Below, one piece after another: positions 25,191-46,609 of a stretch of 51,461 nucleotides of DNA. Positions within the stretch are counted from its first letter, which is position 1. Each line of letters begins with the position of its first letter. Origin of the DNA: a virus (Duplodnaviria; Caudoviricetes); the IMG/VR virus record IMGVR_UViG_3300020129_000348, positions 1-51,461 of that record. One strand, given 5' to 3'. The position numbers and the translations under genes are program-made. The notes beneath the pieces were generated by a model. It was not told the origin of the DNA. It made no database searches and saw only the letters and a list, made by a program, of their open reading frames with translations.

Positions 25191-25195
25191 TACTT

Positions 25196-26077: not shown

Positions 26078-26079
26078 GT

Positions 26080-26361
26080 ATGAACGGCACAGAAAAACTG
26101 GTATTTGTAATCTGCCAGGTCTGTACAAAGAACTCACCTCGAATAAACAAGTGCGCATCCTGCTACCATTACGAAGAGCGGAAGGAGACGAGACCGACTG
26201 TGAAATGCACGTTCTGTTCATTTGAGAATCCGATACCTCCGTTTTCAGGGATGTGTTTGAAGTGTGGAGCGGGTGTTTCTTTTTCGGTTGGCGCTCCTCT
26301 CGTCAATCTCTCATCGGTAGCAGCACCTTGCGTTCGCGCAAATGAGGCGCTGAATGTTTGA
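26080..26361 (+). CDS. Zn-ribbon protein running into left end of C4
   Basis: Four CxxC pairs. Confidence 0.6.
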   Translation: MNGTEKLVFVICQVCTKNSPRINKCASCYHYEERKETRPTVKCTFCSFENPIPPFSGMCLKCGAGVSFSVGAPLVNLSSVAAPCVRANEALNV

Positions 26362-26875
26362 CAACCGGCCGCCTCGTAAAGATTTGAGCAGTCCAGAATG
26401 CATCGTTCTGCTGTCAGGCATCGCCGAGGGTATTCTACCGATGACACAGGACGCCAAGACGCTCAGGGAAGCCTTTGCATTTATCGCCAGTGCGGATCTC
26501 TTGTGGGAAGCTTTTGAGCTAAAGCGTCAAGCTGCGGAAGCTGCACTGAAAACAGTTGATCCGCAGATTCTCCGTAACATACTTGGCATTGTTGACGACA
26601 AAGGGCGGGCGCAATGACGAAGGCCCAGCGAGAAGCCCATAAAAAACAGAAGCCGCGTAAACGCTTTAGCAAACTGAAGCCGCCTAAAGGATACCGACGG
26701 AACCAGCCGATCGCCGGGCTTCTTTCCGAAGGCCAACTGATCGACCTCGCGTTCAGTCACATGTGCGCACAATTCATTACGGACTTGCTGCCAACCGAAA
26801 CGAAGCGCGATTTGCTTCAGAGGGCGAACGCTGGAAAGCTTGTGGCCGTAGTCGATAGCGGAGAAGAGCCCCAAC
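26287..26875 (+). mobile_element. Cassette C4 (inverted ends), two cargo genes
   Basis: GTTGGCGCTCCTCTC...GTTCGCGCAAATGAGGC left; CAGAGGGCGAAC...GAGAAGAGCCCCAAC right. Confidence 0.85.
26354..26617 (+). CDS. Hypothetical protein (C4 cargo)
   Basis: Starts just after end-encoded GAGG. Confidence 0.7.
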   Translation: MFDNRPPRKDLSSPECIVLLSGIAEGILPMTQDAKTLREAFAFIASADLLWEAFELKRQAAEAALKTVDPQILRNILGIVDDKGRAQ

Positions 26876-26898
26876 AACAAAAAGAGACGATTCAATGA
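26614..26898 (+). CDS. Hypothetical protein (C4 cargo)
   Basis: ATGA coupled; LQRANA...EEPQ tail from cassette end. Confidence 0.65.
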   Translation: MTKAQREAHKKQKPRKRFSKLKPPKGYRRNQPIAGLLSEGQLIDLAFSHMCAQFITDLLPTETKRDLLQRANAGKLVAVVDSGEEPQQQKETIQ

Positions 26899-27386
26899 AC
26901 CCCTCCCTACCCAACTATCCAATCATCGACGGCTTTCTATTGGATACAACGCTCCGTTGTAACCTGACCTTCAAATCTTTAGCTCTAGCAAACTACGAAG
27001 CACTTCGAAGAGCAGGGGCGTATCGTTCTAAAATGTGGACAGTTCCAACCGATCCGGCGAACGTCTCAATTCCAGCCCGTGATGCGTTTGAGTATCAGTG
27101 CTTTCTACCGCCTGGTTCCGCAGTGTGGGGCTACATCTTCAACGCACCGCAAAATCAGTTCTCATTTCAAGTCAAGGACGCCTGTACCGACGTGCCGATC
27201 TGGAGTGAGCCGATAGTATCAACTGGGCAGCGGCGCAAGCAACAGCGGCTCTCTAAGCTTCTTGTAGTGGGGAATCCTGGATTGCTCTCGGTCGAGATTT
27301 GCAACTTGACATCGAATGCACAAACTGGGATTCAGTTGATACTGTGTGGCGGGATTCCTGTTGAGCCGGGAGTCTGTTCGTCATGA
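26895..27386 (+). CDS. Putative jelly-roll-like virion protein
   Basis: Beta-rich; FSFQVKD...LSVEICNL...IQLILCG resembles 22808 ORF. Confidence 0.55.
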   Translation: MNPSLPNYPIIDGFLLDTTLRCNLTFKSLALANYEALRRAGAYRSKMWTVPTDPANVSIPARDAFEYQCFLPPGSAVWGYIFNAPQNQFSFQVKDACTDVPIWSEPIVSTGQRRKQQRLSKLLVVGNPGLLSVEICNLTSNAQTGIQLILCGGIPVEPGVCSS

Positions 27387-27589
27387 ACCGGCCAGAGTTC
27401 AAGTTTGACGAACGCAGTCTAGTGCCCGTATCCGCCATCAGTAAACAGGGATACGTTTTCGTTGAGGTTCGGGGAGGGCTGATTGTGATGCCATCGCTTC
27501 GGAGGGCGCACGCGGAAACTCGCAAGCCGTCGCTTAGCGCCGAGAAAAGCCCCAACAAAAAAACAGGAGACTCTACATGCGGAGTCTAG
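27383..27589 (+). CDS. Small hypothetical protein ending in orphan end
   Basis: ATGA coupled. Confidence 0.55.
   Translation: MNRPEFKFDERSLVPVSAISKQGYVFVEVRGGLIVMPSLRRAHAETRKPSLSAEKSPNKKTGDSTCGV
27496..27556 (+). repeat. Orphan cassette-end site
   Basis: GCTTCGGAGGGCGCAC...GAGAAAAGCCCCAAC, 45-bp spacing. Confidence 0.85.
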
Positions 27590-28332
27590 GAGAACTTCTA
27601 AGAACACCCTTACCAGACTGCACTAAGAACGGAGATCAATCTGTAAAGCAGGGCGGACCATACGGTATTCCGCCTGGAAGCCCACCCCCAACAGGGCCCT
27701 GGATGCGATCTCCAATCATCCCCGACTCCTGGTTACCCGATGTCCTAAAACGAATTCAACCCGCTCCGGACGTATTCAGAGCAAACCGTTGGGACCTGGA
27801 ACTCCTCGGAGAAGCGGACATCTGGAACTACGTCGCATCCCATGGCGGAATTCAAACGTGCTGTCAAATTCCAGACCTCGGAGCTCCAATCTGGAATCAA
27901 CCGCCCTGGCAGGCAATGCCGTCGCAAGGAAAAGAACTCAATCTCTTTTTCTCGCAACCGACGAACACGATTAGTGGCGCACCAGGTCCGTTCGACGGAA
28001 CCGATACGGTAATTGGTCAGTACCGCTGTCCGATCGGTTGGGACGCGGCAATCAGCAAGGTTGTATTCGGATTCACCGGAAACGGATTCGACGATTTCAG
28101 CGGGAACTTATTCTGGCGCCTGATGGTCGGCAAACGATTTGTGAAGAACCTCGGGAACGTACAGAACACTTTCGGATCCCTACAGACGGCGCTACTCGTC
28201 CCCGGCCGGGCGACGGCTCAGGTGATTAGCGGGCAGACAATTACAATTTTAGCGGCAATTCCAAACGGAAGCCCTGTCAACGGCGGACGTGTAACGGCAG
28301 CGGTATTGGGTTGGGAATACCCTCGCCGTTAG
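27577..28332 (+). CDS. Putative jelly-roll-like virion protein
   Basis: C-terminal beta domain YRCPIG...LFWRL...VLGWEY; AGGAG RBS. Confidence 0.6.
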   Translation: MRSLGELLRTPLPDCTKNGDQSVKQGGPYGIPPGSPPPTGPWMRSPIIPDSWLPDVLKRIQPAPDVFRANRWDLELLGEADIWNYVASHGGIQTCCQIPDLGAPIWNQPPWQAMPSQGKELNLFFSQPTNTISGAPGPFDGTDTVIGQYRCPIGWDAAISKVVFGFTGNGFDDFSGNLFWRLMVGKRFVKNLGNVQNTFGSLQTALLVPGRATAQVISGQTITILAAIPNGSPVNGGRVTAAVLGWEYPRR

Positions 28333-28408
28333 ATAAATTCAGGCGGCGCGTGGTGAATGCAAGGCGACTCATTCGGACGGGCGATTCAAACGATTGGAAC
28401 CGTGATCA

Positions 28409-28748: not shown

Positions 28749-28809
28749 CGACAAAAAACTAAAGCAACTGACCTTAGCACTGTGGTACTGTATGTCCGAA
28801 GGAGATAAC

Positions 28810-29382: not shown

Positions 29383-29396
29383 GCTATACTGAACCG

Positions 29397-29699: not shown

Positions 29700-29700
29700 A

Positions 29701-30417
29701 GTGGTATCGCTCGACACACTTCTAGCGGACACCTCACGAGCGCTTCAAGACCTCAGTTCTGCCGTCACTAATCTGAAAGCCGGGTTAGTGACGGTAGCTC
29801 TCGTGAATGGTGCTACGAACTTCGCGCTCTCCCCTTCCGTAATTGAAGCCCTTGAAATTCAGGTCAACCGCGACTTCGCTCCGTTCTGGAATGTCCATGT
29901 CAAACTAACCACTGCGACGAATCCGGGAACCGTCCCGCCCGGAGCCTGGTACCTCCTAATTGCAGACACCGACACGCAAGCGGGCGCCCTCGGCTGGCAC
30001 GATCAAACCCTCGGACGGCCATATGGTGAAGTATTCGTAGTGCCCGCCCAACAATCGGGAGTCGATCTCAGCACGGTGCTGAGCCATGAACTTCTCGAAA
30101 TGCTGGCCGATCCCTACGTGAGTTCAATGGTGCAGTTCACGGACGCACAAGGAAGCCAGAATCTCAGCCCCGTCGAATGCTGTGATGCGGTTGAAAACGA
30201 TCAGTACGACATCACGACATCCAATGGCATCAAAGTGGCAGTCTCAAACTTCGTCACGCCGGCCTACTTCGACCAGAAGTCTAAATTGAAGTACGACTTC
30301 ATGGAGAAACTCACGAATCCGATTCCCTCTATGACTCCAGGTGGATACCTCAGCTACCTTCCAATCACGGCCGGACAATGGACTCAACTTGGCGGAAGGC
30401 TTGCCGGTACTCACTGA
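29701..30417 (+). CDS. Zincin-like metallopeptidase
   Basis: ALGWH...SHELLEMLADP...ECCDAVE. Confidence 0.65.
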   Translation: MVSLDTLLADTSRALQDLSSAVTNLKAGLVTVALVNGATNFALSPSVIEALEIQVNRDFAPFWNVHVKLTTATNPGTVPPGAWYLLIADTDTQAGALGWHDQTLGRPYGEVFVVPAQQSGVDLSTVLSHELLEMLADPYVSSMVQFTDAQGSQNLSPVECCDAVENDQYDITTSNGIKVAVSNFVTPAYFDQKSKLKYDFMEKLTNPIPSMTPGGYLSYLPITAGQWTQLGGRLAGTH

Positions 30418-30435
30418 TCTGCTAAACTTGACGAA

Positions 30436-30909
30436 ATGGACGACATCACCAAAGTTGCGCCCGCGTCAAACATAATTCCGTACATCGTGGCCGCAGTGAC
30501 CGTGGTTCTGATTTCCACCCTTGCCATCTTCGGTGTGTTTCTAGTCCGGCCGGACAAAGACAACACGGCGCTCATTGCGATAATTTGCGCCTCAATCACG
30601 CCCACCAGCGCTGCAATTTTAGCCATGATGAAAGCTCAGGAGACTCACATGGTGGTTAACTCGCGCTTCGATAAAGTCCTCGAAGCGTCGAAAGCCGTGT
30701 CGCACAAGGAAGGGGTAGAGGACGAAAGAGAGCGGCAAAACTTGATGCGCAGAATGATTGACGCAAATAACAATCTCGAAGCCCTGAGGGAATCGGGTTC
30801 GATCCCGCCCGGCGCGGTCCTGCCCGCAGTTCTAGTAGTTCCGACGGAGTCGTCAATTTCAACAGTTCAAGCGCCCACGAATGTGGCCACACCGGAAGCC
30901 AAGAAATAG
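30436..30909 (+). CDS. Two-TM membrane protein (holin-like)
   Basis: Two N-terminal TM segments, charged C-terminus. Confidence 0.6.
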   Translation: MDDITKVAPASNIIPYIVAAVTVVLISTLAIFGVFLVRPDKDNTALIAIICASITPTSAAILAMMKAQETHMVVNSRFDKVLEASKAVSHKEGVEDERERQNLMRRMIDANNNLEALRESGSIPPGAVLPAVLVVPTESSISTVQAPTNVATPEAKK

Positions 30910-30923
30910 GAGTATACTGAACC

Positions 30924-31430
30924 ATGCGCACCCTTCGCCTTCTCACTCTGTCGATTCTCCTGCTTTCACTGTTCGGATGTAAGAGCAGCCTAACTACAAC
31001 GCTCAATCTGGTAGTTGCCGCGTCCGAAGCCGCAGTTGGCGTTCTCGAATCGACGGGCAGTCTTCCGCCGGCCGTGGGATCGCAAATTACAACATACCTT
31101 CAACTCGTAAGCGAAGCGACTAGTTTTGCTACAACTGAACTCGCATCGGCGGACACGAGCCAGGTGAAGGCGTTGAAAATAGCTCAGGAGTTCGCAAAGA
31201 TCGCCCAGCCGACTTTTGGGCCAGGTACCCCGCAGACGGTCATCAATGTAGTTCAGTCCGTCGTTACGGCCGTGCTCAACTTCTTGCAGACAATTCAGCC
31301 CCCGCCAGGCGCTCATGCCGCCAGAACAGCACCGCCAAACATCAAATTGTCAGCCGACGACATGAAGACGTTGGACGGTATTAACGTACGAGCTCTGCAG
31401 GTGAAGGCCCGGCTTATACGGCTTCACTAG
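30924..31430 (+). CDS. Lipoprotein
   Basis: Signal with LFGC lipobox. Confidence 0.75.
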   Translation: MRTLRLLTLSILLLSLFGCKSSLTTTLNLVVAASEAAVGVLESTGSLPPAVGSQITTYLQLVSEATSFATTELASADTSQVKALKIAQEFAKIAQPTFGPGTPQTVINVVQSVVTAVLNFLQTIQPPPGAHAARTAPPNIKLSADDMKTLDGINVRALQVKARLIRLH

Positions 31431-31483
31431 TACTGAAGTTCCATTGCATTCCTCTCGCTGACGGGTTTAGAATTGCGTTATGT

Positions 31484-32108
31484 TCTGGCGCTCTTCTCAC
31501 CATCCGTTCGCAGCTTGCGACTTTCAGACGTTCGCGCAAATGAGGCAGTGGTGAAAGCTCTCTCGTTGACCCAACCGTGGGCTTCGCTTGTGGCCGTTGG
31601 CGCAAAGAGAATCGAGACGCGATCTTGGCGAACGCCATACCGCGGGGCGTTGGCGATTCACGCAGCGAAGCGTTTCCCGGCAGACGCCCGCGATTTCACC
31701 TACACAAAGATGGCGCGAGAATCTCTCGTGCCGTACTACGCCGAGCCGGATCACTGGCTTGGTGTTACCGACAAACCAACTCAGCTTGACAAAAATCTTC
31801 CTCTCGGTTGTGTTATCGCCACATGCCGCCTGATCTCATGTATTCCGACAAGAGAGATTGAACTCGCTAAGAAGATAGGTGTAGACCAAGCCGTTATCCC
31901 ACTCTGTCCCGATTTCGAGATCACGGAGCAAGAGTACGCCTTTGGCAATTACAGTTTGGGTCGATGGGCCTGGCTTCTCGCTGACATCAAACTACTCCCT
32001 GAACCAATACCAATAAGGGGAGCACGGTCTCTCTGGGAATGGGAGCCTGTTCATAGCGCGAACGGCATACCCTCCAAACCGCCCACCGAACCCGAGAAGA
32101 GCGCCAAC
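31484..32108 (+). mobile_element. Cassette C6 (inverted ends), cargo ASCH gene
   Basis: TGGCGCTCTTCTC...GTTCGCGCAAATGAGGC left; TAGCGCGAAC...GAGAAGAGCGCCAAC right. Confidence 0.9.
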
Positions 32109-32117
32109 GGAAAATGA
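31551..32117 (+). CDS. ASCH-domain protein
   Basis: KALSLTQPWASL...GAKRIETRSW...YRG-x-LAIHA. Confidence 0.9.
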   Translation: MKALSLTQPWASLVAVGAKRIETRSWRTPYRGALAIHAAKRFPADARDFTYTKMARESLVPYYAEPDHWLGVTDKPTQLDKNLPLGCVIATCRLISCIPTREIELAKKIGVDQAVIPLCPDFEITEQEYAFGNYSLGRWAWLLADIKLLPEPIPIRGARSLWEWEPVHSANGIPSKPPTEPEKSANGK

Positions 32118-32746
32118 AGAAGTGTGCAATCTACATCCGAGTGAGCACACCCAAGAAAGTACCGGGCAAAGCAGCAGGCTCGGAAGTCTACCTGCAAAAT
32201 CCCGCAGTGCAACTAGAACCGTTGAAACAACTGGCCAGCATAATCAACGCGGAAGTATTCAAGGTGTACTCTGACCGGATGAGCGGAGCAAACACGAACC
32301 GGCCAGCTTATCGGGAACTGATGACCGATGCACGGCGCCGCCAGTTCCAAGTAGTAATCGTGTGGCGCTTCGACCGCTGGGCGCGATCGACACAAGAGCT
32401 AATCTCGACTCTCGAAGAATTCCAAGCGTTGGGCATCGACTTCATTTCACAGCAAGAAGCGATTGACACAAGTACGCCCATGGGCAAGTGCCTATTCACT
32501 ATCATTGCAGCCGTCGCGGAGATGGAGAGGCATGCAATCAAGGAACGGATTCGCGCCGGCATGGAGTACGCCCGCAATCATGGAACGAAGTCGGGTAAGG
32601 AAGTGGGGCGACCGAAACGGGTGTTTCGGAGGGATGAGGCGATCGCGCTTCGACAAGAAGGCTTGCCCTTCCGGGAGATCGCACGGCGTCTCAAAGTAGG
32701 GGATGGTACAGTCAGGCGGGCATGCGCCACAATGCTATCGGCGTAA
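32114..32746 (+). CDS. Small serine recombinase (resolvase/invertase family) with C-terminal HTH
   Basis: YIRVST, SG...RP, DRWARS, ERIRAG, GRP, IARRLKVGDGTVRR. Confidence 0.95.
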   Translation: MKKCAIYIRVSTPKKVPGKAAGSEVYLQNPAVQLEPLKQLASIINAEVFKVYSDRMSGANTNRPAYRELMTDARRRQFQVVIVWRFDRWARSTQELISTLEEFQALGIDFISQQEAIDTSTPMGKCLFTIIAAVAEMERHAIKERIRAGMEYARNHGTKSGKEVGRPKRVFRRDEAIALRQEGLPFREIARRLKVGDGTVRRACATMLSA

Positions 32747-32813
32747 GAGGGCTGAAGTGTTGGGGACTCAGGTGTTACCATTACTGCTAGAGATGCGCCA
32801 ATAGGACTAGGTT

Positions 32814-33056
32814 GTGGCTCAGGAACAGTTAGAAACTAACAAAACGGCTACCGTAACCGTCTCCCTGAATCTCGGAACGTGGCTTGCAATCCAAACAGCC
32901 CTTGTCGCTTTCTCGTTTGCTCCCGAACGCAGAAAGTTCATGTGCGCGTTATTGAAGAAGTTCAATCGGGCGCTTTATATTGCACGGGGAGGCTCGGCGA
33001 AAGAACATGATGAGATCGTAAAACGCATCGCCGAATCGAAAAAGCGAGGCTGGTGA
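32814..33056 (+). CDS. Hypothetical protein
   Basis: GTGA coupled to next ORF. Confidence 0.6.
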   Translation: MAQEQLETNKTATVTVSLNLGTWLAIQTALVAFSFAPERRKFMCALLKKFNRALYIARGGSAKEHDEIVKRIAESKKRGW

Positions 33057-34255: not shown

Positions 34256-34288
34256 CTAACTGCGAGAGATTGCCGAGAAAAGCCCCAA
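34228..34288 (+). repeat. Orphan cassette-end site at 3' end of MTase
   Basis: GCCTCAGAGGGCGCACGG...GAGAAAAGCCCCAA. Confidence 0.85.
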
Positions 34289-34300
34289 AACTAAAAAACA

Positions 34301-35514: not shown

Positions 35515-35522
35515 AAAAAAAT

Positions 35523-35747: not shown

Positions 35748-35751
35748 TGAG

Positions 35752-36906: not shown

Positions 36907-36913
36907 ATAAATC

Positions 36914-37860: not shown

Positions 37861-38060
37861 CGCCGCCGCATCCTTTCCCGCATGAGGGCGAACTTTCCCT
37901 CCAGCGGCCGATATCTACGCTTGCTCGGCGGCACGTACACGGGAATACGAATACGCGTCAAGTCGCGCGTCAGCCGCAGCGGCATTATGTCGAGATGCTG
38001 CAGAACGGATTGACTGTGCGCCGGCACTCCGGAACGTGCGGGGATAATAGCTATATGCAT
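37857..38060 (-). CDS. Small basic protein
   Basis: ATGA coupled. Confidence 0.5.
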   Translation of the reverse strand: MHIAIIPARSGVPAHSQSVLQHLDIMPLRLTRDLTRIRIPVYVPPSKRRYRPLEGKFALMRERMRRR

Positions 38061-38061
38061 G

Positions 38062-38292
38062 TCACTTATGACACCCTTGACATTGCTTCAAGCCGGCAGC
38101 ACTTTTCATCGAAGGCCGAAAGCAAGAGTTGCTTCCGATCATGACCGATTGCCCTTCAAAACTGTAGATCGGCGGATCGAAACAAACAACCGAATGCAGA
38201 CTATCTCGCTTAGGCGAAAGCTGCACGTTGCGGAAGAGACATCCTGTTGTCAGCATGCACAGACCCACCAATAATGCAATCGTGGTTCGCAT
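38062..38292 (-). CDS. Small Cys-rich lipoprotein-like protein
   Basis: MRTTIALLVGLCMLTTGC; TGATG coupling. Confidence 0.55.
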   Translation of the reverse strand: MRTTIALLVGLCMLTTGCLFRNVQLSPKRDSLHSVVCFDPPIYSFEGQSVMIGSNSCFRPSMKSAAGLKQCQGCHK

Positions 38293-39209: not shown

Positions 39210-39535
39210 ACGTTGGCGCTCTTCTCGGCTATAGAGAACAGGTTGCGACTCTCAAACGTTCGCGCTATGAAGCCCTGACTGTCGTTCGGTAACGATATTG
39301 CATGTCCAGGCGCGACGGTTACCGTGTTGTAGAGCGGCGTGTCCTGCACGTCGAGATCATCAGAAATGTAGATTTGCCCTGTGAATTGCTGGATGATGAA
39401 CAACTGTTTGTCTGTGATGCACTGCGCCGCAATCTCAAGAGAACTTGGCGGTGGAGCAACAGGGGCCGGAATAAACCGTTTCAGTCCGAACAGCGCGGCA
39501 AGCGTAGCGAAGAATCCACGGCGAGTTAGTCCCAT
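39206..39535 (-). CDS. Twin-arginine-signal protein containing a capsid-protein fragment (C8 cargo)
   Basis: TRRGFF N-terminus; residues 35-84 match residues 28-77 of 21422..22114 (32/50 identical, counted by hand). Confidence 0.75.
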   Translation of the reverse strand: MGLTRRGFFATLAALFGLKRFIPAPVAPPPSSLEIAAQCITDKQLFIIQQFTGQIYISDDLDVQDTPLYNTVTVAPGHAISLPNDSQGFIARTFESRNLFSIAEKSANV

Positions 39536-39951
39536 CAGTACTCATCCTCGTTTCGATAACTACGAATCGACAGCGGACGCGCAGCGGGAGTTCCGTCAAT
39601 GCTCGGTAGTAAGTCACGAACGGTTTGCTCGTCAACTGGTGTGATGGAGTAGATTGCCGGAAGTCCGAAGTATCGCGTAAAGCCGACGCGCACTACTTTG
39701 CCGCCCTTCAACAGATCGGGAACATCGACACGAAAGAGCACGCCACTTCCAAAGGTCTGCTGGGAGAGAAAGCCGACGATCCGCTGGTGTCCGAAGAGTT
39801 CAACGAGTGCCCATGATTTCAACTCAGGTGCCGAGGGCCGCTCGTTTGGCTCAACGATCAACGCTTGCGGGTTCGTTCGCTTCACATCAGCCTCATTTGC
39901 GCGAACGCAAGGTGGGCCTGGCCGCGAGAGATTGCCGAGAGGAGCGCCGAC
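39212..39951 (-). mobile_element. Cassette C8 (inverted ends), two cargo genes
   Basis: GTTGGCGCTCTTCTC...GTTCGCGCTAT left; GCCTCATTTGCGCGAAC...GAGAGGAGCGCCGAC right. Confidence 0.9.
39535..39885 (-). CDS. Hypothetical phage protein (C8 cargo)
   Basis: WALVELFGHQRIVG...FRVDVP...AIYSITP. Confidence 0.75.
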   Translation of the reverse strand: MKRTNPQALIVEPNERPSAPELKSWALVELFGHQRIVGFLSQQTFGSGVLFRVDVPDLLKGGKVVRVGFTRYFGLPAIYSITPVDEQTVRDLLPSIDGTPAARPLSIRSYRNEDEY

Positions 39952-39994
39952 ATAAAAGAACCGTATCTATAGTACTACTCCATCTAAGGTACCG

Positions 39995-40023
39995 TTGACA
40001 AGCCTTTTCTTAGGCTCTAATCT
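39995..40023 (+). promoter_or_regulatory. sigma70 promoter, probably leaderless transcript
   Basis: TTGACA-N17-TAATCT, 7 nt before ATG 40031. Confidence 0.7.
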
Positions 40024-40030
40024 TGTGGGC

Positions 40031-40360
40031 ATGGCAAATGCAATTATAAAGTACGGAGACGACGGGGGAACCTTCGCGGTCGTTTTGCCGGACGGGGAAG
40101 AAACGGACGCACTAGATCTAGACCTGAACGGGATTACACTTCTCGACGATGAATCGGATCCGAGCGCCCCCGGCTTTCTCGTGTTGACATCGGCCTACGG
40201 AGGCGGACTCAAACCAAACACAGTCTATCAGCTTACAGCGCTGGATACGGACGTTGAAACCGACGTTGACCTTGACTATGACGACGAATCGGACGAGGAA
40301 GAGTACGAATCGGACGACGAGGACGAAGACGACGAAGAAGCCGAGGAAGCCGAAGCGTGA
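40031..40360 (+). CDS. Highly acidic small protein
   Basis: D/E-rich throughout, long acidic tail. Confidence 0.8.
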   Translation: MANAIIKYGDDGGTFAVVLPDGEETDALDLDLNGITLLDDESDPSAPGFLVLTSAYGGGLKPNTVYQLTALDTDVETDVDLDYDDESDEEEYESDDEDEDDEEAEEAEA

Positions 40361-40454
40361 CACGCGAACCACTGACGCCCGCAACTCCGCTTGAACTCGC
40401 TGAACGAGCCAAATGTCCAGCTTGCCGCGAAGGACGTTGGCACACCGAAGCTGA

Positions 40455-40808
40455 GTGGAAGAATCACCCACGGGCGGGAAATGGGCATTCTTTGCTCGAT
40501 ACGACACGACCGAAGAAGACCGTATGATTAACGCTTTATTTGTTGCTGGCGCTCCTCTCGGCTGTTTTTCATCGGCTGACGCACTTTGCGTTCGCGCAAA
40601 TGAGGCAGCACGACGGAACCGCTTTTTCGCAGCGTTCACCACCGATGAATTAATAGCCGTGACGACCATCTTATTCTCCCCGCTTCCTATCAGTCTGAAG
40701 AGGGAATGCTTGGTGCCAATTGCAGACCGAGTGCTTCAGAGGGCGAACGCGGAAGAACCGCAGCCGACGAGCGGCACCCGAGAAGAGCCCCAACCAAAAA
40801 AGCAATGA
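40455..40808 (+). CDS. Hypothetical protein reading through cassette C9
   Basis: Contains translation of both ends; stop overlaps next ATG. Confidence 0.45.
   Translation: MEESPTGGKWAFFARYDTTEEDRMINALFVAGAPLGCFSSADALCVRANEAARRNRFFAAFTTDELIAVTTILFSPLPISLKRECLVPIADRVLQRANAEEPQPTSGTREEPQPKKQ
40545..40794 (+). mobile_element. Cassette C9, minimal 250-bp element
   Basis: GCTGGCGCTCCTCTC...GTTCGCGCAAATGAGGC left; CAGAGGGCGAAC...GAGAAGAGCCCCAAC right. Confidence 0.85.
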
Positions 40809-40999
40809 CAGTACCACCCAATCTTGATCTCTCTCCCGAACTAAGAGCTCTAATTGAAGAATCAGTTCAAAACTTCACCGCTCAACTGAAATCGGCAACA
40901 GGTTGGGTGTACAACATGATCGGAGCAGAGAACTGGATTGCCGATTACCGGGCTGAGATTACGCGCGTAATTCGCAAGACGCTGGAGACAAAGAAATGA
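40805..40999 (+). CDS. Hypothetical protein
   Basis: ATGA coupled. Confidence 0.6.
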   Translation: MTVPPNLDLSPELRALIEESVQNFTAQLKSATGWVYNMIGAENWIADYRAEITRVIRKTLETKK

Positions 41000-41313
41000 A
41001 CGTACGCTCCGTCACATTCCCGCAGCTTCAGTATAATGAATCGGCCAAAAAGTCACGCGTGAAAAAATCCGCCGACAACGGCCATGCACCGGAAAAGGCA
41101 CAGGCCGTAGCGAAGCAAGTACAATTGGCCCCTAAGCCCAACATTCTCACCGCTCTGGACCAAGCACGCATCCACGCCAATATCATTTTCAATAAGCTAA
41201 ATCCGATCATCGGCTCTGAAAATCGCCATGGCGACCTGTGCGTAATTCGCAGCGCAGCCTTGAACATACTTCAGCATATTGAAGTACTGATCAACGCGGA
41301 GGAAGAGACATGA
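40996..41313 (+). CDS. Hypothetical protein
   Basis: ATGA coupled. Confidence 0.65.
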   Translation: MNVRSVTFPQLQYNESAKKSRVKKSADNGHAPEKAQAVAKQVQLAPKPNILTALDQARIHANIIFNKLNPIIGSENRHGDLCVIRSAALNILQHIEVLINAEEET

Positions 41314-41642
41314 CCTGTCCATCCTGCCATGCCGAAGTACCACCCGGCCAGCTCGTGTGCGATTGCTTCCAGGTGAACGCTGACAAGGAAGTCCAGGAAC
41401 GAGCACTCGCCGCCTTTATTCAGCGCGGCCAACTACTCTACCGGACCTCAGCACTCACGAGTGGACATCATCTGTTGCCAGCACGAAAGAACTGCCTTTC
41501 ACTGTGCCACAAGAAACGATTCCACTTCGCGAAAACATCGCCGATTGTGAAGGACCAGTTCCTCCACGCCAAGCCCGATGAGTTCTGTAAAGCATGCGCT
41601 GAAGTAGTCAACGCTGCAATTCGAGGAGTCGATGCCGCCTGA
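41310..41642 (+). CDS. Cys-rich hypothetical protein
   Basis: CPSC, CDC, CLSLC, CKAC. Confidence 0.7.
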   Translation: MTCPSCHAEVPPGQLVCDCFQVNADKEVQERALAAFIQRGQLLYRTSALTSGHHLLPARKNCLSLCHKKRFHFAKTSPIVKDQFLHAKPDEFCKACAEVVNAAIRGVDAA

Positions 41643-42192
41643 ATTCGTCCGCATTGAAGATTACCGGCCGTTCTGGGAAGCATTCCGACGTGACCAAGAA
41701 TGGACCGCGTTTACCGGGCTACTCGACGGCGAACCAGCTTGGAGCGACGGTCACGTGTTGATGCTGGGAGATCCGCCACCAAGCGCCGACACGCCTCAAG
41801 ACGCCCCTCTGCATATGTTTGACGGACCTTTGGAGAAGGCGAAACGAGAGACCCTGAAACCGATTGAACCGCTGGCCGTCACAACGATAGGAAAATACAG
41901 AGTCGTTGTCTTTTCAGATGGACATATCGTCGATGTTCGCTTTTGGCGTTTACTCAACGAACGATGGCGGCACGCAATCTGGCTAGGAGACGAATACTCA
42001 CACTGTGAGCTGCCAACAACGCTAATATCCCCGATGGCTATACGGGATGGAGAGAAGTTGGTTGCTGTAGTCATGGCTATGAAGACAGACAGTTACGCCG
42101 ATATCAATGCAGTGCTGGCAGAGCTTCAGAACGCGAACCGCAGCGACTCCAAGCAGTCAACGGAAGCCGAGAAGAGCGCCGATCAAAAATGA
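41632..42192 (+). CDS. Hypothetical protein ending in orphan end
   Basis: GAGGAG RBS; tail ...EKSADQK. Confidence 0.75.
   Translation: MPPEFVRIEDYRPFWEAFRRDQEWTAFTGLLDGEPAWSDGHVLMLGDPPPSADTPQDAPLHMFDGPLEKAKRETLKPIEPLAVTTIGKYRVVVFSDGHIVDVRFWRLLNERWRHAIWLGDEYSHCELPTTLISPMAIRDGEKLVAVVMAMKTDSYADINAVLAELQNANRSDSKQSTEAEKSADQK
42123..42183 (+). repeat. Orphan cassette-end site
   Basis: GCTTCAGAACGCGAAC...GAGAAGAGCGCCGAT; spacer very similar to reverse complement of C7 left end. Confidence 0.85.
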
Positions 42193-42587
42193 ACGCGTTG
42201 AAACAAGTAGCTCATTGGGTAAAAGAACAACTGCCCTCTCGTTGGCCCAAAGGAACAGTCGCAGTCCGAGAGAAGTCTGGGAAGCCAGCCTTTCTAAAAG
42301 GAGTAGTTCATACAATTAACCGGAATGGCATTTGGATCGAAGTCGGCGAACCGTCGATGCGCTGTCTCTTGGGCGCGACGTACATTCACTACTGCGATCA
42401 TTGCCAGAAGTCGATTCCAGGATACGTCACGTTCAACCGGCCGGCGAATCAAAGACACTACTGCCCCTTCTGTGGACCAGGCTTTCTTTTACGAGAACTA
42501 CGGAAAGGTGAAAAGGTTCTACTGCATTACCGCTTTCGAGAAGATGGGAGTGGAGGGATGTGGTATGGGGAGAGAGTTGATTGGTGA
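42189..42587 (+). CDS. Zn-ribbon hypothetical protein
   Basis: CDHC...CPFC. Confidence 0.7.
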   Translation: MNALKQVAHWVKEQLPSRWPKGTVAVREKSGKPAFLKGVVHTINRNGIWIEVGEPSMRCLLGATYIHYCDHCQKSIPGYVTFNRPANQRHYCPFCGPGFLLRELRKGEKVLLHYRFREDGSGGMWYGERVDW

Positions 42588-42652
42588 ACTTTCTTAGTCG
42601 TTGGCGCTCTTCTCAGGGATCGTTGACAGTTTGAAGACGTCACGTTCGCGCT

Positions 42653-42940
42653 ATGGATACCAGACCAGTTGAGAAAGCAGAAATTATCGGTGTTCAGTTC
42701 AACTCGCTCGGACGACGGACCTGGATACTGAAGGGCGATCCGAGGGCTGATCGAGAACCAACTACCCGGCTACTGATGGCTCAGCCGACAATGCGGCGAT
42801 TAGAAGCGTTCCGAAGTGGAGCTATGGCGCGCTGTCAAGGACTTCCGCGTAAACCACATTGGAACCGGGACTCGCTTGGGGCTTACCATTTCGGCATCGG
42901 ATGGGACGCCGCCGATCTTAAGATTCGAGACTTATCATGA
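42653..42940 (+). CDS. Hypothetical protein (C10 cargo)
   Basis: ATG lies in the cassette end. Confidence 0.65.
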   Translation: MDTRPVEKAEIIGVQFNSLGRRTWILKGDPRADREPTTRLLMAQPTMRRLEAFRSGAMARCQGLPRKPHWNRDSLGAYHFGIGWDAADLKIRDLS

Positions 42941-43161
42941 AACGGTTGATTGTGGAAAGCATTGGGATGGCTCTGATGTTCGGGGCGATGTGGGGACACA
43001 ACGCAATACTCAACCTTCCCGTATTCCAATTTCATTGGAGGCCGTGGCTGGCTGGTGGTCTCATCTGGCTTTGCTCCGGGATAAATACTAATCTCATGAA
43101 TGCCTACCGCAAAATCAAAGCTTCAGAGGGCGAACGCGAAGACCCTCAACCTCCGCGTTGA
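42937..43161 (+). CDS. Two-TM membrane protein (C10 cargo)
   Basis: Two hydrophobic segments; SEGER tail. Confidence 0.65.
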   Translation: MKRLIVESIGMALMFGAMWGHNAILNLPVFQFHWRPWLAGGLIWLCSGINTNLMNAYRKIKASEGEREDPQPPR

Positions 43162-43193
43162 CAGCCGAGGAAAGCCCCAAAAAGGGAGAGAAA

Positions 43194-43679
43194 ATGGACA
43201 GTTATGAATCAGTAGTACACTCTGGCGATAAGACCTCAATTGCAATTGTAGGCATGCCGGCATCGAAGGTTTCAGACACACTGGATGCGTTGGAAGTGCT
43301 GTATCAGGCGGTTCAAGAAGAGCCAGCCGGAGACTTGGCGTCGATTCCGAAGCGCCGGTGGTGGCAATCCTCTAACACGCACGTAGTTTTGGAAGTGGCG
43401 GTGCGTCAGGCACGCATACGGACAAACCTGCTGAAGATCGCCCGCGACCAGGTCCGCGAACTCGCAATTGCCCACGCCAAAGCACTCAACGACGCCAAGG
43501 CTCATGCCGCACAAGTGGACTTCTACAAACAGTACCTCGAACTCGCAGCGCAACTGAGGGAGCTGAGGAACTTCTTTGCGGAGCACTACTCTTCTGAACT
43601 GGAAAGAGCACTGGTACAGAATGTTAACTTACTGGACTTAGCGAAACAGATTATGCTCAGGAATAAGGCAGGCTCGTGA
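43194..43679 (+). CDS. Helical hypothetical protein
   Basis: GGAG RBS; alternative TTG start 43158. Confidence 0.7.
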   Translation: MDSYESVVHSGDKTSIAIVGMPASKVSDTLDALEVLYQAVQEEPAGDLASIPKRRWWQSSNTHVVLEVAVRQARIRTNLLKIARDQVRELAIAHAKALNDAKAHAAQVDFYKQYLELAAQLRELRNFFAEHYSSELERALVQNVNLLDLAKQIMLRNKAGS

Positions 43680-43691
43680 TGATGCTTTGTG

Positions 43692-43977
43692 GTTGGCGCT
43701 ATTCTGAACTGTCAGCGGAACGGTTGAGCCACTTTGCGTTCGCGCAAATGAGGCAGGGGTAGGCACGTGCCGCACGAGTTTGATAGGCGTATTCAGCTTT
43801 CGGTGGGAACTATACGCGTCCATTTCCAGATCCCAAACGTCTTTGCCCTAACTGGAATTGACCGGGACTTCGTGTATCAAATCATCGACGCGGTGAACCA
43901 CTACGAGCATAAACAGCTTCAGAGGGCGAACGCGGAAAAACCGCTACCGACGAGCGACAGCGGAGAAGAGCCCCAAC
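43692..43977 (+). mobile_element. Cassette C11 (inverted ends)
   Basis: GTTGGCGCTATTCTG...GTTCGCGCAAATGAGGC left; CAGAGGGCGAAC...GAGAAGAGCCCCAAC right. Confidence 0.85.
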
Positions 43978-43997
43978 CTAAAAGGAACAGAGAGTGA
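43767..43997 (+). CDS. Small hypothetical protein (C11 cargo)
   Basis: LQRANA...EEPQ tail. Confidence 0.6.
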   Translation: MPHEFDRRIQLSVGTIRVHFQIPNVFALTGIDRDFVYQIIDAVNHYEHKQLQRANAEKPLPTSDSGEEPQPKRNRE

Positions 43998-44422
43998 TTC
44001 AATCCCTCGACAAACGAACCGGCACTCTCTGGTATTGCACTGAATGCCCCGCTTCTGGTGTTCTAACGTGGCTGGAAGGAAATCCCGGAGTATGGGCGGT
44101 ATCTGAAGCCCTCCGGGAAGCTCACGCGGTCCACTGGCTCGCAATACGCATACTTGTACCGAACCGCTGGAAGATGGACCTGGACACGGCGGGAAACCAA
44201 TTATGCGGCATGTTGCGCGTCCTAAAAGATGTCTTACAGGTAGACATGGAATGCGATGGACGCTCCAATGGGCCAGTGCAAGAGAATCTTGATCCTGAAC
44301 TGTTGGCGCGGGTGCAAACCGTTATCAAAAGGGCCGAAGAGCTTCAGAGGGCGAACGCGGGAGAGCCGCAACCGACGAGCTACAGCGGAGAAGAGCCCCA
44401 CTATAAAAGGAGCGAGTCATGA
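43994..44422 (+). CDS. Hypothetical protein between two direct-orientation ends
   Basis: GTGA coupled; LQRANA...EEPH tail. Confidence 0.7.
   Translation: MIQSLDKRTGTLWYCTECPASGVLTWLEGNPGVWAVSEALREAHAVHWLAIRILVPNRWKMDLDTAGNQLCGMLRVLKDVLQVDMECDGRSNGPVQENLDPELLARVQTVIKRAEELQRANAGEPQPTSYSGEEPHYKRSES
44341..44401 (+). repeat. Orphan cassette-end site
   Basis: GCTTCAGAGGGCGAAC...GAGAAGAGCCCCAC; close copy of 43916-43977. Confidence 0.9.
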
Positions 44423-44760
44423 ACCCAGTTCAACAAGTCGTAAGCAAAGAACAAATTGAAATGCAACTCAGGTATGCCGAAGTAGAGCTTGCATGCTGGA
44501 TTAAACACCTGGAAGCACACCAAGCAAGGGGCGGAGCGGAGTGCGAGTTTAATTCGGCGCTATGGATCAAGGCTTATCCCGGCTGCGAACATCTTCCCGT
44601 CCTAGAACGCTACATTGATACGTACAAAGCCGACTACGACGCCAAAGCCGAACTGATCAAACTGAGCCTTGCGAAGCTACAGTCTAATGTCGATCAGCTT
44701 AAACAGATTCTTTTGAAGATTGATCAACAGGTAGTTGTGCCGGGTAGTTTTCAGGTTTGA
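44419..44760 (+). CDS. Coiled-coil hypothetical protein
   Basis: AGGAG RBS, ATGA coupled. Confidence 0.7.
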   Translation: MNPVQQVVSKEQIEMQLRYAEVELACWIKHLEAHQARGGAECEFNSALWIKAYPGCEHLPVLERYIDTYKADYDAKAELIKLSLAKLQSNVDQLKQILLKIDQQVVVPGSFQV

Positions 44761-44833
44761 TTTTTATGTTGGCGCTCTTCTCATCTGTCTTTCGTAGCTT
44801 GAGCCACTGGGCGTTCGCGCAAATGAGGCAGCC

Positions 44834-45076
44834 ATGAACCTGAACGACCTCTACCCGCGCGGAACAAAGCTGGTGGACGTACCGCCCGATTTCACCGGTA
44901 TGCCGGTAGCTGAATGGCAACGTCTGAAGATGCAAGAACAGTTCGACGCATACCGAGTTGCCGCCGATGCCGCTGGGCCACAGACCGAAGGCGCACTCCG
45001 CGACTGGAAGCGCTGCAAAGGTCAGGAGTGGCGCGGCAAGGCGTTAGCTACGAAGCGGGATGGCTACGGGAAATGA
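44834..45076 (+). CDS. Hypothetical protein (C12 cargo)
   Basis: ATG after end-encoded GAGG. Confidence 0.7.
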   Translation: MNLNDLYPRGTKLVDVPPDFTGMPVAEWQRLKMQEQFDAYRVAADAAGPQTEGALRDWKRCKGQEWRGKALATKRDGYGK

Positions 45077-45327
45077 AGATCGAGATTCAGTCCTGCACAA
45101 TCACCACAGTCATGAACACATCCGACAAACCGGATGCTCTTGTAGTCAGACTTGCCGAGCAAATGGCGTGGTCTAAGAAGTTCGCAGACCTGCAAGAAGA
45201 GACAACGCTGGACGCCAAGCTATCGACCGCCCGTACAATCATTCTCCTAGTCGGGCTTGTCGCTTCCGTTGCGTTCAATGTTTACCAGTTCATCGCATCC
45301 GTGATTGCCTCAGAGGGCGCACGGTAG
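45073..45327 (+). CDS. Single-TM protein (C12 cargo)
   Basis: ATGA coupled; SEGAR tail. Confidence 0.65.
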   Translation: MKIEIQSCTITTVMNTSDKPDALVVRLAEQMAWSKKFADLQEETTLDAKLSTARTIILLVGLVASVAFNVYQFIASVIASEGAR

Positions 45328-45400
45328 AAAACTCACAACCGTTGCGTTGACCGTTGAGAAAAGCCCCAAACAAAAAGAAGGGTATGATACAATTCCAACC

Positions 45401-45673
45401 ATGTTAGAACTAACTAGCTATCAGACTCGAAATGCACGACTGGTGAAAATGGAATCCCATGAGCTAAGGGACATCACCCTGCAGGACGGCTCAACTCAGA
45501 GCATGGACGTATTCCGCGGCACACTCATGAAAGCCGATGGAACTACTCCTGAGACTCAGTGCGAATGGATTGACTCCAAACAGCCACATACGATCGGGGA
45601 GTGCATTAACCCAGCTACGAGACGGCCATTTGGACAGACTACTCTGAATGATCTTGTCAAACGAGTTGGTTGA
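45401..45673 (+). CDS. Hypothetical protein
   Basis: TACAAT 7 nt before ATG. Confidence 0.65.
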   Translation: MLELTSYQTRNARLVKMESHELRDITLQDGSTQSMDVFRGTLMKADGTTPETQCEWIDSKQPHTIGECINPATRRPFGQTTLNDLVKRVG

Positions 45674-45749
45674 TTCCTTCTTTTTTGTTGGCGCTCTTCA
45701 GGGCTGTCTCTCGTAGCCAGCGCCGATCAGCGTTCGCGCAAATGAAGCT

Positions 45750-46540
45750 TTAGGTGAAGCATCCCTCAACACAGCCACGCTCGGCAAACATCGTATTTTG
45801 AGCAAAGAAGTCTACCTCGCCAAGCGGCATGCACGATGGATGCAAGTAGAAGTGGGGATCAATCGCGCGTAGATCGCGGTCGGTTTCACAAGCCAACTTG
45901 AAATCTTCGGGCCAGTTCAATTTCATGTCGATCCATTCCGAATCCGCGTGGTTTGGGCAAAGGTAACACGCTGAATGTGGAATAGGCCCATCCCATGTTT
46001 CCCGGATCAATGCAACGGTAGTGTCCTAATTTAGGACACTACCAATGCAACGCATTGATTGACACGCATCGGAACGTCAAACAACAACGGATATCTGATC
46101 TGTAGCCATTTCACTCGTGGACGGCGAACCCGGCTCATTTCGTTGAGTGAAATACCTATCCAGTTGGTTGCGCTCTCGACTCCCAGCGAACGCAAATAAC
46201 GCATCAATACTTCGCGCTTCCACTCGCCGGAACAATACGGTTCCAGTTTCCCGAGTGAGCCGCTTTGGTTTGTAAACCCCGGCAGCAACACTAATCCTTT
46301 GGTGCTGAGGAGGTCCACGGTCGCCCAATCGTCCTTTTTGATTATCGTTAGTTCCAAGCCGACCTCGGCCAGCTTCGGGCGAATGAATCCATCGACAAAC
46401 GGCCATGTCGAAGACCGCTCCCGGCCAGTGTTCGTCATAACACAAAGGTCAGGACGCGGCAACCGGCCCTGGCGGATTAACTCGGCTATCGCGCCGCTCT
46501 GCCTACCTCCACCACAGGACCATACTTGAAGATCTTTCAC
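45750..46540 (-). pseudogene. PAPS-reductase/PP-loop family gene frameshifted by a 35-bp insertion
   Basis: VWSCGGGRQS PP-loop, TGRE, SACYLCP; two ORFs fuse if 46017-46051 is removed. Confidence 0.8.
46017..46043. mobile_element. 27-bp palindromic IS-like footprint with 8-bp target duplication
   Basis: GGTAGTGTCCTAA-T-TTAGGACACTACC flanked by AATGCAAC at 46009-46016 and 46044-46051. Confidence 0.8.
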
Positions 46541-46609
46541 GCGTGCCTCATTTGCGCGAACGCAAGGTGCTGCAACCCACGAGAGGTAGTCCAGAAGAGC
46601 GCCAACATA

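Follow-up and report, generated by a model that had tools for sequence, protein, structure and literature searches.

In integrons, short open reading frames (ORFs) lie in the boundary sites of gene cassettes. ORF-11, ORF-17 and ORF-18 of attI1 and the short ORFs of attC sites are small, indifferent to the peptide encoded, and have a stop codon near or over the cassette start. These ORFs are held to feed ribosomes to the cassette through termination-reinitiation, and the attC short ORF restarts past the stop of the preceding cassette (PMC8876359). In Cluster K mycobacteriophages, the SAS and ESAS are phage-specific repeats found 3–7 bp before the starts of non-structural genes only (PMC3203893). 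The SAS is a 13-bp asymmetric consensus with AGGAG that occurs in one orientation. It contains a Shine-Dalgarno core and precedes unrelated genes, and the upstream stop lies inside some sites; no bridging ORF is described (PMC3203893). The ESAS consists of inverted repeats thought to bind a protein (PMC3203893). Meanwhile, the PeSL of T4-type phages are short conserved motifs that flank accessory ORFs and are made up of a sigma-70 promoter and a stem-loop terminator. They are held to shuffle modules by recombination between copies (PMC2839356).

The window analysed here is a complete virus contig of 51,461 nt (51.5 kb) from an uncultured soil phage. Its accessory genes are set apart by a ~75-nt repeat, of which nhmmer found 35 copies. 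The same repeat is also present in related soil phages, with about 165 nhmmer matches in all sequences examined, and we found no description of this family in the searchable literature. The repeat comprises a T-rich edge and two boxes, box 1 (GTTGGCGCTCTTCTC) and box 2 (GTTCGCGC), with ~30 nt of variable spacer between them and the tail xTGARGC after box 2. GAGG or GAAG was found in every copy. The two boxes are direct rather than inverted, a single copy has no terminal inverted repeat, and one position of the boxes is strictly complementary (C:G, G:C or T:A) and never broken. In addition, nine gene groups are flanked by forward and reversed copies as inverted pairs. The 16-mer GTTCGCGCAAATGAGG occurs nine times exactly in the window and once with one mismatch (45732, ending in GAAG). 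At up to three mismatches there were 11 matches, against 0.77 expected and a maximum of 3 in 100 shuffles; the match at 11425, with three mismatches and inside a gene, is at chance level.

Most copies are reversed and lie at gene 3′ ends, and those genes read through the repeat. Long ORFs enter 63 reversed copies; a next start is nearby in 41 of these, and 28 of the 41 show a 4-nt overlap. Such ATGA/GTGA overlaps are the default gene junction in these genomes. The AAATGAGG subtype lies in forward orientation, directly ahead of gene starts. The preliminary description had held that this subtype supplies GAGG and a mini-ORF of four or five codons whose stop meets the cargo start. Rereading of the junctions gave the same stop/start coordinates at the five copies named for it (C4, C6, C8, C12 and C13). 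In addition, some neighbouring "cassettes" at 22.2–26.1 kb proved to be encoded on the minus strand.

Five of the ten AAATGARG copies in the window have an intact bridging ORF, that is, a frame that opens with an ATG at the outer edge and continues through the repeat to the cargo start or close to it. Copy C6 (31478–31547, plus strand; nhmmer) belongs to the class with a box distance one base longer. Its bridging ORF of 24 codons (31480–31554, plus strand) ends ATG AGG CAG TGG TGA, and the TGA overlaps GTG 31551; this is the second in-frame GTG, after 31548, of a gene ending at 32117. Copy C8 (39890–39960, minus strand; nhmmer) precedes the minus-strand gene 39885–39535, and its 23-codon bridging ORF (39882–39953, minus strand) ends ATG AGG CTG ATG TGA over GTG 39885. 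The longest bridging ORF, with 27 codons (43679–43762, plus strand), is that of copy C11 (43683–43755, plus strand; nhmmer). Its ATG shares one base with the TGA of gene 43158–43679, and its small frame (43748–43762) ends in TAG 4 nt ahead of GTG 43767, as had been claimed. Copy C12 (44761–44830, plus strand; nhmmer) has a 23-codon bridging ORF (44766–44837, plus strand) that ends ATG AGG CAG CCA TGA over ATG 44834, a cargo start confirmed by a G001 homologue aligning from residue 1. The minus-strand gene 46540–46031 is preceded by copy C13 (46544–46613, minus strand; nhmmer), whose bridging ORF (46537–46608, minus strand) has 23 codons, or 26 if counted from ATG 46617, and ends ATG AGG CAC GCG TGA over GTG 46540. 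The outer ATGs of C12 (44766) and C13 (46608) do lie where they had been placed, 5 nt past the stop of gene 44419–44760 and 1 nt past the TAA of the SLT lysozyme gene 47179–46610 (SLT domain), respectively. The 23-aa peptides noticed earlier in C8, C12 and C13 are real (39953–39882, 44766–44837 and 46608–46537), but the full-length frames of C6 and C11 had been missed.

The other five copies differ. Copy C4 (26278–26349, plus strand; nhmmer and frame analysis) carries the AAATGAGG tail at a divergent junction. Its mini-ORF ATG AGG CGC TGA (26342–26353, plus strand) abuts ATG 26354 of ORF 26354–26617, with the stop at −3, but an in-frame TAG, 21 nt ahead of the inner ATG, interrupts its bridging frame. 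In copy C14 (49498–49570, minus strand), the inner ATG 49505 is, as previously noted, the cargo start itself; it opens a lipoprotein-like ORF (49505–49191) of 104 aa with the N-terminus MRLWFVCLSLLLVIGC. Three further copies had been overlooked. The AAATGAGG copy at 40536–40607 (plus strand; 16-mer at 40590) is off-pattern, has no outer ATG and shows only a 17-codon frame, followed by a reversed copy (40732–40801). The AAATGAGG copy at 49924–49993 (plus strand; 16-mer at 49978) is also off-pattern; at this divergent junction GAGG lies 7 nt before ATG 50001, the small frame continues for 143 nt inside the gene, and a bridging ORF is absent. The AAATGAAG copy at 45678–45748 (plus strand; 16-mer at 45732) sits at the 3′ end of two genes on the minus strand (46540–46031 and 46010–45750), with no plus-strand gene downstream.

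Across the family, an in-frame outer ATG without an intervening stop was found in 17 of 29 ATG-type copies versus 10 of 80 other copies (Fisher, 3.4e-6). The intact ORF was present in 4 of 59 CTG-type and 6 of 21 TTG-type copies. In the 54 nt before box 2, the bridging frame contained stops in 3 of 28 copies, against 13/28 and 12/28 for the other two frames, and the same frame contained stops in 34 of 81 copies of other subtypes (p = 0.0024). Furthermore, the ATG-type copies fall into two classes that keep the frame and differ in peptide (MLALFS… versus MFWRSS…); one extra spacer base is compensated by an ATG two bases further out. The bridging ORFs are 23–27 codons long and end in …FAQMR. In five copies the upstream stop and the bridging ATG overlap to form ATGA, in one they form TGATG, and in three more the stop precedes the ATG by 1–5 nt. 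For the five ATGA copies, the distances from ATGA to GGCGC are 9, 6, 9, 12 and 12 nt, each divisible by three. Neither the outer nor the inner ATG has a Shine-Dalgarno sequence of its own. The mini-ORF of 4–5 codons does not stand as the unit; judged at the sequence level, the conserved unit is the larger bridging ORF of 23–27 codons from the outer ATG.

To describe the junctions, we used the 18 AAATGARG copies with a called gene start within 16 nt, which come from G000, G002, G005 and five metagenome contigs (at least eight contigs). Genes and starts were called by a home-made codon log-odds score, not by a trained gene finder. The small-frame stop overlaps the start as xTGA in 10 of the 18 copies, or 11 if the second GTG (31551) is used, abuts it in two and overlaps it by one base in one. 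Thus, the termination-reinitiation geometry is present at 14/18 junctions, with stops within −3 to +1 nt of the start, and the four non-fitting junctions have stops at −7, +5, +11 and +143. This part of the preliminary description is supported by the statistics: among 132 other genes with GAGG 2–14 nt upstream, 25 (19%) have a compatible geometry (binomial P(≥11 of 18) = 9.5e-5). The GAGG supplied by the subtype has a preferred spacing of 5 nt (8/18 copies versus 14/132 background genes, p = 0.001), whereas the background mode is 7. When conditioned on the base after each start codon, 11 of 13 were in phase (p = 7.7e-4). Among forward copies of all subtypes with an outer ATG and a downstream gene, 14 of 29 end in xTGA (P = 3.3e-4). 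For instance, the same geometry from outer ATG to xTGA was seen in three copies of other subtypes (G001 17781−, G001 31850− and G002 8723+), with spacers of 29, 32 and 28 nt, respectively. The stop/start geometry exceeds chance, but all these p-values overstate independence because the copies share descent (the AAATGA linker marks a single subfamily), and among the metagenome copies two pairs represent orthologous loci.

We lean, with moderate confidence, towards the reading that the repeat-borne bridging ORF acts as a two-step termination-reinitiation relay between phage genes, so that ribosomes would probably be handed across the forward repeat from the preceding to the following gene. The repeat would be embedded such that translation never halts there in either orientation. 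In reversed copies, the commoner kind, the gene ahead reads straight through the repeat, and its stop forms an ATGA/GTGA overlap with the start that follows. The AAATGAGG subtype would be an adaptation to the forward orientation. Its linker before the conserved TGA is one base longer, which puts this TGA out of frame and makes the internal ATG, and the ORF of 23–27 codons spans the whole repeat from an ATG within the T-rich outer edge, often on or beside the stop of the upstream gene. Because the outer ATG has no Shine-Dalgarno sequence, initiation there would need re-initiation or another feature, and ribosomes done with the upstream gene may re-initiate on the bridging ORF. They would then pass over GAGG, terminate at the cargo start (overlapping it as xTGA, or next to it) and start again there, aided by the GAGG 5 nt upstream. 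We infer that the bridging ORF would be translated and that cargo expression would depend on it. The earlier proposal that these ends make promoterless cargo expressible wherever it lands goes further than the sequence data, in which cargo replacement is seen at the inner end of the repeat in two pairs of related loci.

Four other explanations have to be weighed against this relay. It is unlikely that GAGG alone matters, that is, that the tail happens to supply a Shine-Dalgarno sequence and that the ORFs result from an A-poor strand and subfamily descent without being translated. The presence of GAGG or GAAG in all copies fits this explanation, as does the outer ATG without such a sequence, and the copies at 26278 and 49924 head operons at divergent junctions without a bridging ORF, yet precede genes with positive coding scores. 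However, the depletion of stops is confined to one frame, the in-frame outer ATG is enriched, the spacing of 5 nt departs from the genome mode of 7, and other subtypes arrive at the same geometry via different spacer lengths. Chance, as a few coincidences among ten copies, is the least credible explanation: the window alone has only four or five overlaps, and A follows half of all starts, but the pattern recurs in copies from seven further contigs and every background test gave p ≤ 0.001. That the ORF is no passive relay but encodes a leader peptide with a function or a regulatory role, as attenuator or micropeptide, seems very improbable. The ORF length and the …FAQMR end are conserved as this would predict, whereas the peptide itself is not, because the two classes use different frames for their N-terminal halves. 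The conservation is at the nucleotide level, in boxes common to the reversed, non-homologously read copies, and no alternative RNA structures stand out.

The overlap could also be a mechanical or historical by-product, inherited rather than selected, either through insertion into existing ATGA overlaps or through cargo exchange by recombination between copies. We regard this as doubtful, though it and the relay are not mutually exclusive. Several facts point in its direction. In related phage loci, the similarity of 77–80% ends 8 nt past the inner ATG with unrelated cargo beyond (2/2 pairs), and overlaps of 4 nt are the genome default. Orthologues of two cargo genes, in G007 and G001, have the same overlapping TGA, as a GTGA/ATGA overlap with the upstream ORF, though without the repeat; the overlapping stop may have come with the cargo instead of having been shaped by the repeat. 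Nevertheless, if insertion made a fixed duplication, ATGA and box 1 should always be equally far apart, but no constant flanking duplication was seen, the distances being 6, 9 or 12 nt and all in frame. Furthermore, random phase predicts about one third of junctions in phase, against 12/18 seen, and junctions alone leave the frame-specific depletion of stops inside the repeat unexplained.

Compared with the described systems, the likeness to attI1 and attC is that a short ORF in a boundary element is coupled to the cassette start, here as sequence geometry. The attI1 analogy drawn in the preliminary description was apt, and the short ORFs inside attC sites are the closer analogue (PMC8876359). 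However, a GGAG of its own lies 8 bp upstream of ORF-11, whereas the phage outer ATG has none and the Shine-Dalgarno sequence sits within the bridging ORF, ahead of the cargo start. In addition, the host element is a phage genome, its repeat works in both orientations, and the contig has neither IntI, the tyrosine recombinase beside an integron array, nor an attC-type palindrome, an imperfect one whose inverted core sites (GTTRRRY and its complement) fold into a hairpin. A six-frame search of the whole contig gave no PF00589 match, while controls matched in 14/14 genomes; the boxes are direct and RNAalifold gave only a 4-bp stem. The likeness to the SAS is limited to the position of the forward subtype; the phage repeat differs in sequence and length, and most of its copies are oppositely oriented, at 3′ ends. 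Like the PeSL, it is a short conserved motif flanking accessory ORFs, and here homology breaks at the repeat edge, but it has no promoter or terminator signal above shuffles and no stable fold, and it appears to be translated through rather than to end transcripts. Between 31001 and 51000 there were 11 promoter-like sites (12.6 expected) and 16 terminator-like sites (21.6 expected), none recurring at repeats. No stable RNA fold was found in ten copies (z-scores −1.27 to +1.46), and the whole window had no Rfam match at gathering score. Set beside a MITE or mobile insertion cassette, which has terminal inverted repeats within one element and a target-site duplication, a single copy lacks such inverted repeats, inverted pairs of copies do flank nine gene groups, and no constant flanking duplication was seen. 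Ordinary ATGA/GTGA translational coupling has the same stop/start geometry and presumed mechanism; the difference is that the upstream partner here is not a gene but a repeat-encoded filler ORF, coupled at both ends.

A tentative idea, which we consider rather improbable, is that soil phages, probably of Acidobacteriota, carry a gene-cassette system with the repeat as its boundary site. In such a system every cargo would carry a 3′ copy, and the repeat would be the place of exchange, given that homology stops precisely at the inner end. In the alignments of the two locus pairs, the cargo appears to have been replaced exactly at this point. The complementary position of boxes 1 and 2 would be the sign of a form, folded as a single strand or synapsed, that an enzyme recognises, as in attC. 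Either a C-terminal tail on the upstream protein or the doubly coupled bridging ORF would then make the cargo plug-and-play in a coupled operon. The only recombinase seen is a serine resolvase (32114–32746), and Y1 transposase, the only transposase family searched, was not found.

If the relay works as proposed, it would explain how dozens of repeat copies are tolerated in the translationally coupled polycistronic operons of these phages, and unrelated accessory genes could be swapped at the repeats without initiation signals of their own. The design rule would be an outer ATG on the upstream stop, an open frame, and a stop on the next start. Furthermore, it would extend the idea of integron ORF-11 and attC short ORFs to another class of element, another enzyme background and a phage. 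In modular phage evolution, such a relay would be the half concerned with translation.

The repeat that lies between the accessory genes is about 75 nt long. In it, two boxes, box 1 (GTTGGCGCTCTTCTC) and box 2 (GTTCGCGC), are separated by a spacer of variable length (about 30 nt) and flanked by a T-rich edge on the box 1 side (often ...TTTTATG) and by a tail of the form xTGARGC on the box 2 side. Using a profile built from 84 aligned copies, we found 35 matches in the window, 31 in G001 and 32 in G002 (two complete related phages), 22 further copies in five other virus records, and 45 in 10 of 123 metagenome or genome loci fetched by pattern; the remaining loci of the 123 were chance pattern matches. 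The strict repeat pattern was absent from G013, which is a relative by one protein (48% identity).

The majority of the copies, with tails TCTGAAGC or TTTGAGGC, are reversed relative to the preceding gene, which enters the copy and stops within the repeat or just past it. Thus, in many proteins the repeat encodes the final 7-25 residues (for example, ...LQ(R/S)ANA...EEPQPKK), and unrelated proteins carry such C-terminal tails at 3156-3250, 26813-26898, 40732-40808, 43916-43997, and 44341-44422. This tail reading frame is recurrent, yet other frames are used too, so the tail peptide is not constant. A long ORF enters 63 copies in the reversed orientation, and a 4-nt overlap was found in 28 of the 41 for which the next start is close. 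The frames opposite the AAATGAGG subtype are all short and score poorly as coding sequence; on the subtype's own strand, a gene begins within a few bases after GAGG, the Shine-Dalgarno sequence in the repeat. This subtype is the forward, 5'-end version of the repeat. At 40536-40804, a forward and a reversed copy lie almost back to back, about 125 nt apart, with only a 17-codon frame between them and with competing gene calls (40455-40808 and 40706-40999); this could be a cassette that is empty or has decayed.

The cassette orientations of the preliminary description are probably wrong at 22200-26090. There, three gene groups were assigned to the minus strand (22226-22813, probably 23279-23962, and 25196-25630 with 25634-25999), because their homologues in G002 and G001 are much stronger than those of the overlapping plus-strand ORFs. 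Long antisense "shadow" ORFs run through these genes at 22157-22795, 23264-24007, and 25184-26083.

The same description had proposed that forward copies carry a translational starter, namely a frame of 4-5 codons that opens at the ATG of the AAATGARG tail (the inner ATG) and closes on the start of the downstream gene, the cargo. Every junction quoted for it was correct on re-reading. Among the ten AAATGARG copies of the window, a TGA stop overlaps the next start codon (xTGA) in four (31551, 39885, 44834, and 46540). The TGA abuts the ATG at 26354, the stop of the small frame lies 4 nt before the start at 43767, and the tail ATG is itself the start of a lipoprotein-like protein at 49505. The copies at 40590 and 49978 do not match the pattern, and that at 45732 is located at the 3' end of minus-strand genes. 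A second tail ATG that apparently serves as a gene start was observed at 42653 (ORF 42653-42940), in the forward copy 42591-42656 with tail TATGGATA.

The sample was then widened with copies from G002, G005 (another virus record), and five metagenome contigs. A downstream gene was called for 21 ATG-type rows, of which 18 were kept; the three dropped were 39203 (a TATGA copy with the start 29 nt away), 49498 (whose ATG is the start), and locus L296 (26 nt away). The xTGA overlap was found in 10 of the 18, or in 11 using the second of two in-frame GTGs (31548/31551); in addition, the stop abuts the start in two and overlaps it by one base in one. The background was drawn from eight phage genomes and comprised 132 other genes in which GAGG precedes a candidate start by 2-14 nt (modal spacing 7; A after the start in 53%); in 25 of them (19%), both the spacing phase and the base following the start codon (A) are compatible with xTGA. 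The overlap among homologous ends was significantly in excess (11/18, P = 9.5e-5), in a sample of modest size that relies on a home-made gene caller and a subfamily sharing descent. Furthermore, a GAGG spacing of 5 occurred in 8/18 copies vs 14/132 background genes (p = 0.001), an A in phase in 11/12 vs 25/50 (p = 0.009), and, conditioned on each gene's own next base, 11/13 were in phase (p = 7.7e-4). Copies with CTG or TTG tails were rejected as negative controls: 3 of the 11 rows with a gene within 16 nt (after dropping 3 with a negative coding score) overlapped, and since these 3 have full bridging ORFs, they are further positives.

The short frame is usually part of a longer one. The inner ATG has no purine-rich stretch upstream, and its frame is usually open through the repeat back to an ATG at the outer edge, which gives a bridging ORF of 23-27 codons. 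In the window, bridging ORFs were found on the plus strand at 31480-31554 (24 codons, MFWRSS...QTFAQMR..), 43679-43762 (27 codons), and 44766-44837 (23 codons), and on the minus strand at 39953-39882 and 46608-46537 (23 codons each); the three of 23 codons share the peptide M(L/S)AL...AFAQMR... The ORF was intact in 17/29 ATG-type copies vs 4/59 CTG-type and 6/21 TTG-type copies (Fisher 3.4e-6). In the 54 nt before box 2, the AAATGA copies have stops in the bridging frame in 3/28, vs 13/28 and 12/28 in the other frames and 34/81 in the bridging frame of other subtypes (p = 0.0024). The bridging ORF is missing from the three copies whose box distance differs (41 or 48 nt). In addition, the copies form two lineages, in one of which the boxes are one base farther apart and the ATG is displaced outward by two bases. 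Between them the frame is kept and the N-terminal peptide is entirely different, which argues that the act of reading, and not the peptide, is conserved.

The bridging ORF is also coupled to the gene before it. Among 17 copies with the ORF, the upstream stop overlaps the bridging ATG in six (ATGA in five, TGATG in one); in three more copies, it precedes this ATG by 1, 4, or 5 nt. A fixed target-site or insertion duplication at ATGA is not supported: the five ATGA sites lie 6, 9, 9, 12, and 12 nt before GGCGC, all in frame, and such varied but in-frame distances argue for selection on the frame. At G002 34073, the upstream ORF itself continues across the forward repeat to end as TAG|ATG. Other subtypes converge on this arrangement: three ordinary-tail forward copies (G001 17781 and 31850 on the minus strand, G002 8723 on the plus strand; spacers 29, 32, and 28 nt) have a full ORF that opens at the outer ATG and closes in an xTGA on the following start codon, with a different frame solution in each. 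Overall, an outer ATG is present in 29 of the 40 forward copies having a downstream gene and absent in 11; the ORFs of those 29 comprise 14 with an xTGA end, 3 that stop within -12 to +5 nt, 5 that are in frame with the gene, and 7 that end elsewhere.

In two pairs of related metagenome loci, the upstream gene and the entire repeat are 77-80% identical, and in both pairs the similarity ends 8 nt past the inner ATG, followed by unrelated cargo. The junctions are xTGA in 4/4, with spacings of 5, 2, 5, and 5. Cargo genes also recur elsewhere in other contexts. The homologue in G007 (a further virus record) of the cargo starting at 46540 is 69% identical and has a GTGA overlap with its upstream gene and no repeat. 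The alignment of the cargo starting at 44834 with a G001 gene begins at residue 1, and this G001 gene is preceded by a tRNA-Met (L101:809-882; G001 40809-40882, minus strand, between a repeat copy and this gene) and an unrelated 9-codon frame with TGA over ATG. No tRNA was found in the window, unlike G001. These comparisons speak for an exchange of modules at the repeat and for coupling as a general requirement, and, as both homologues are overlapped without the repeat, the overlapping TGA may travel with the cargo.

The record (51,461 nt in its entirety) was classed as linear and 93% complete. A repeat copy at 1-59 is truncated by the first base and an ORF (50869-51459) runs off the last base; with the linear, 93% class, this suggests that the contig may be circularly permuted or truncated at its ends (1-59, 50869-51461). 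Among 50,697 deposited phage records, neither megablast with 14000-22000 nor tblastn with two proteins found a cultured-phage relative. Soil and rhizosphere metagenome runs contain near-identical fragments of the window, and a 3.2-kb contig of a Terriglobales MAG has four repeat copies, so an acidobacterial (Acidobacteriota) host is plausible. Scans of 30 ORFs with Pfam and 20 with PHROGs gave few family matches: a helicase-methylase fusion (71-3250), glycosyltransferases and a second methylase, a serine resolvase (32114-32746), an SLT lysozyme (46610-47179), an HNH nuclease (DUF968/HNHc_6; 48064-48504, minus strand), and collagen-like triple-helix repeats (PF01391; ORF 5191-5973). In Logan contigs of four soil runs over 30001-50000, which are short and shallow, no repeat joints were found, and recurrent loose ends occurred only at 40312-40347, a low-complexity acidic coding stretch rich in GAC/GAA that draws many unrelated metagenome contigs in read mapping.

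Several other roles were considered for the repeat. A stable RNA structure was rejected, as there is no stable fold, the consensus stem has just 4 bp, and no Rfam family matched; a promoter-terminator cassette was not supported by promoter and terminator search. An attC site with its integrase was rejected too, since the contig lacks a tyrosine recombinase and the repeat an attC-like fold; no Y1 transposase was found in the contig. The serine resolvase is a poor candidate for the repeat's enzyme: among eight repeat-bearing genomes and contigs, tblastn detects it in just three (G000, G001, and G007), and it is absent from G002 with its 32 copies. The HNH nuclease has homologues in all eight, but HNH genes are common in phages, so nothing was concluded from this sharing. 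Position 6 of box 1 and position 7 of box 2 are complementary in 84/84 copies (C:G 77, G:C 6, T:A 1; further T:A copies in other contigs), a score reached by 0/500 shuffles. The covarying motif pairs are GGCGC/CGCGC, GGGGC/CGCCC, and GGTGC/CGCAC (for example, window 40732-40801, 43916-43986, and 26813-26883), and, in the same antiparallel register, position 10 of box 1 (C/T) also varies together with position 3 of box 2 (T/G). No stable helix was predicted around these positions; such strict complementarity suggests a state in which the two boxes are paired or synapsed.

The preliminary observation was thus confirmed and extended, and its interpretation is supported in part. On the sequence comparisons, a translational starter borne by the repeat is the best reading, and we consider it reasonably probable. 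The 4-5-codon frame does not stand as its sole core; the predicted core is the longer, doubly coupled bridging ORF plus GAGG. Literature searches returned no match for four repeat motif strings and nothing relevant on repeat-borne coupling in phages. The mechanism class is already known, as integron ORF-11, attC ORFs, and ordinary ATGA coupling belong to it, and its embodiment in a two-orientation phage repeat appears to be new. The common rule is predicted continuous translation across the repeat, in either orientation.
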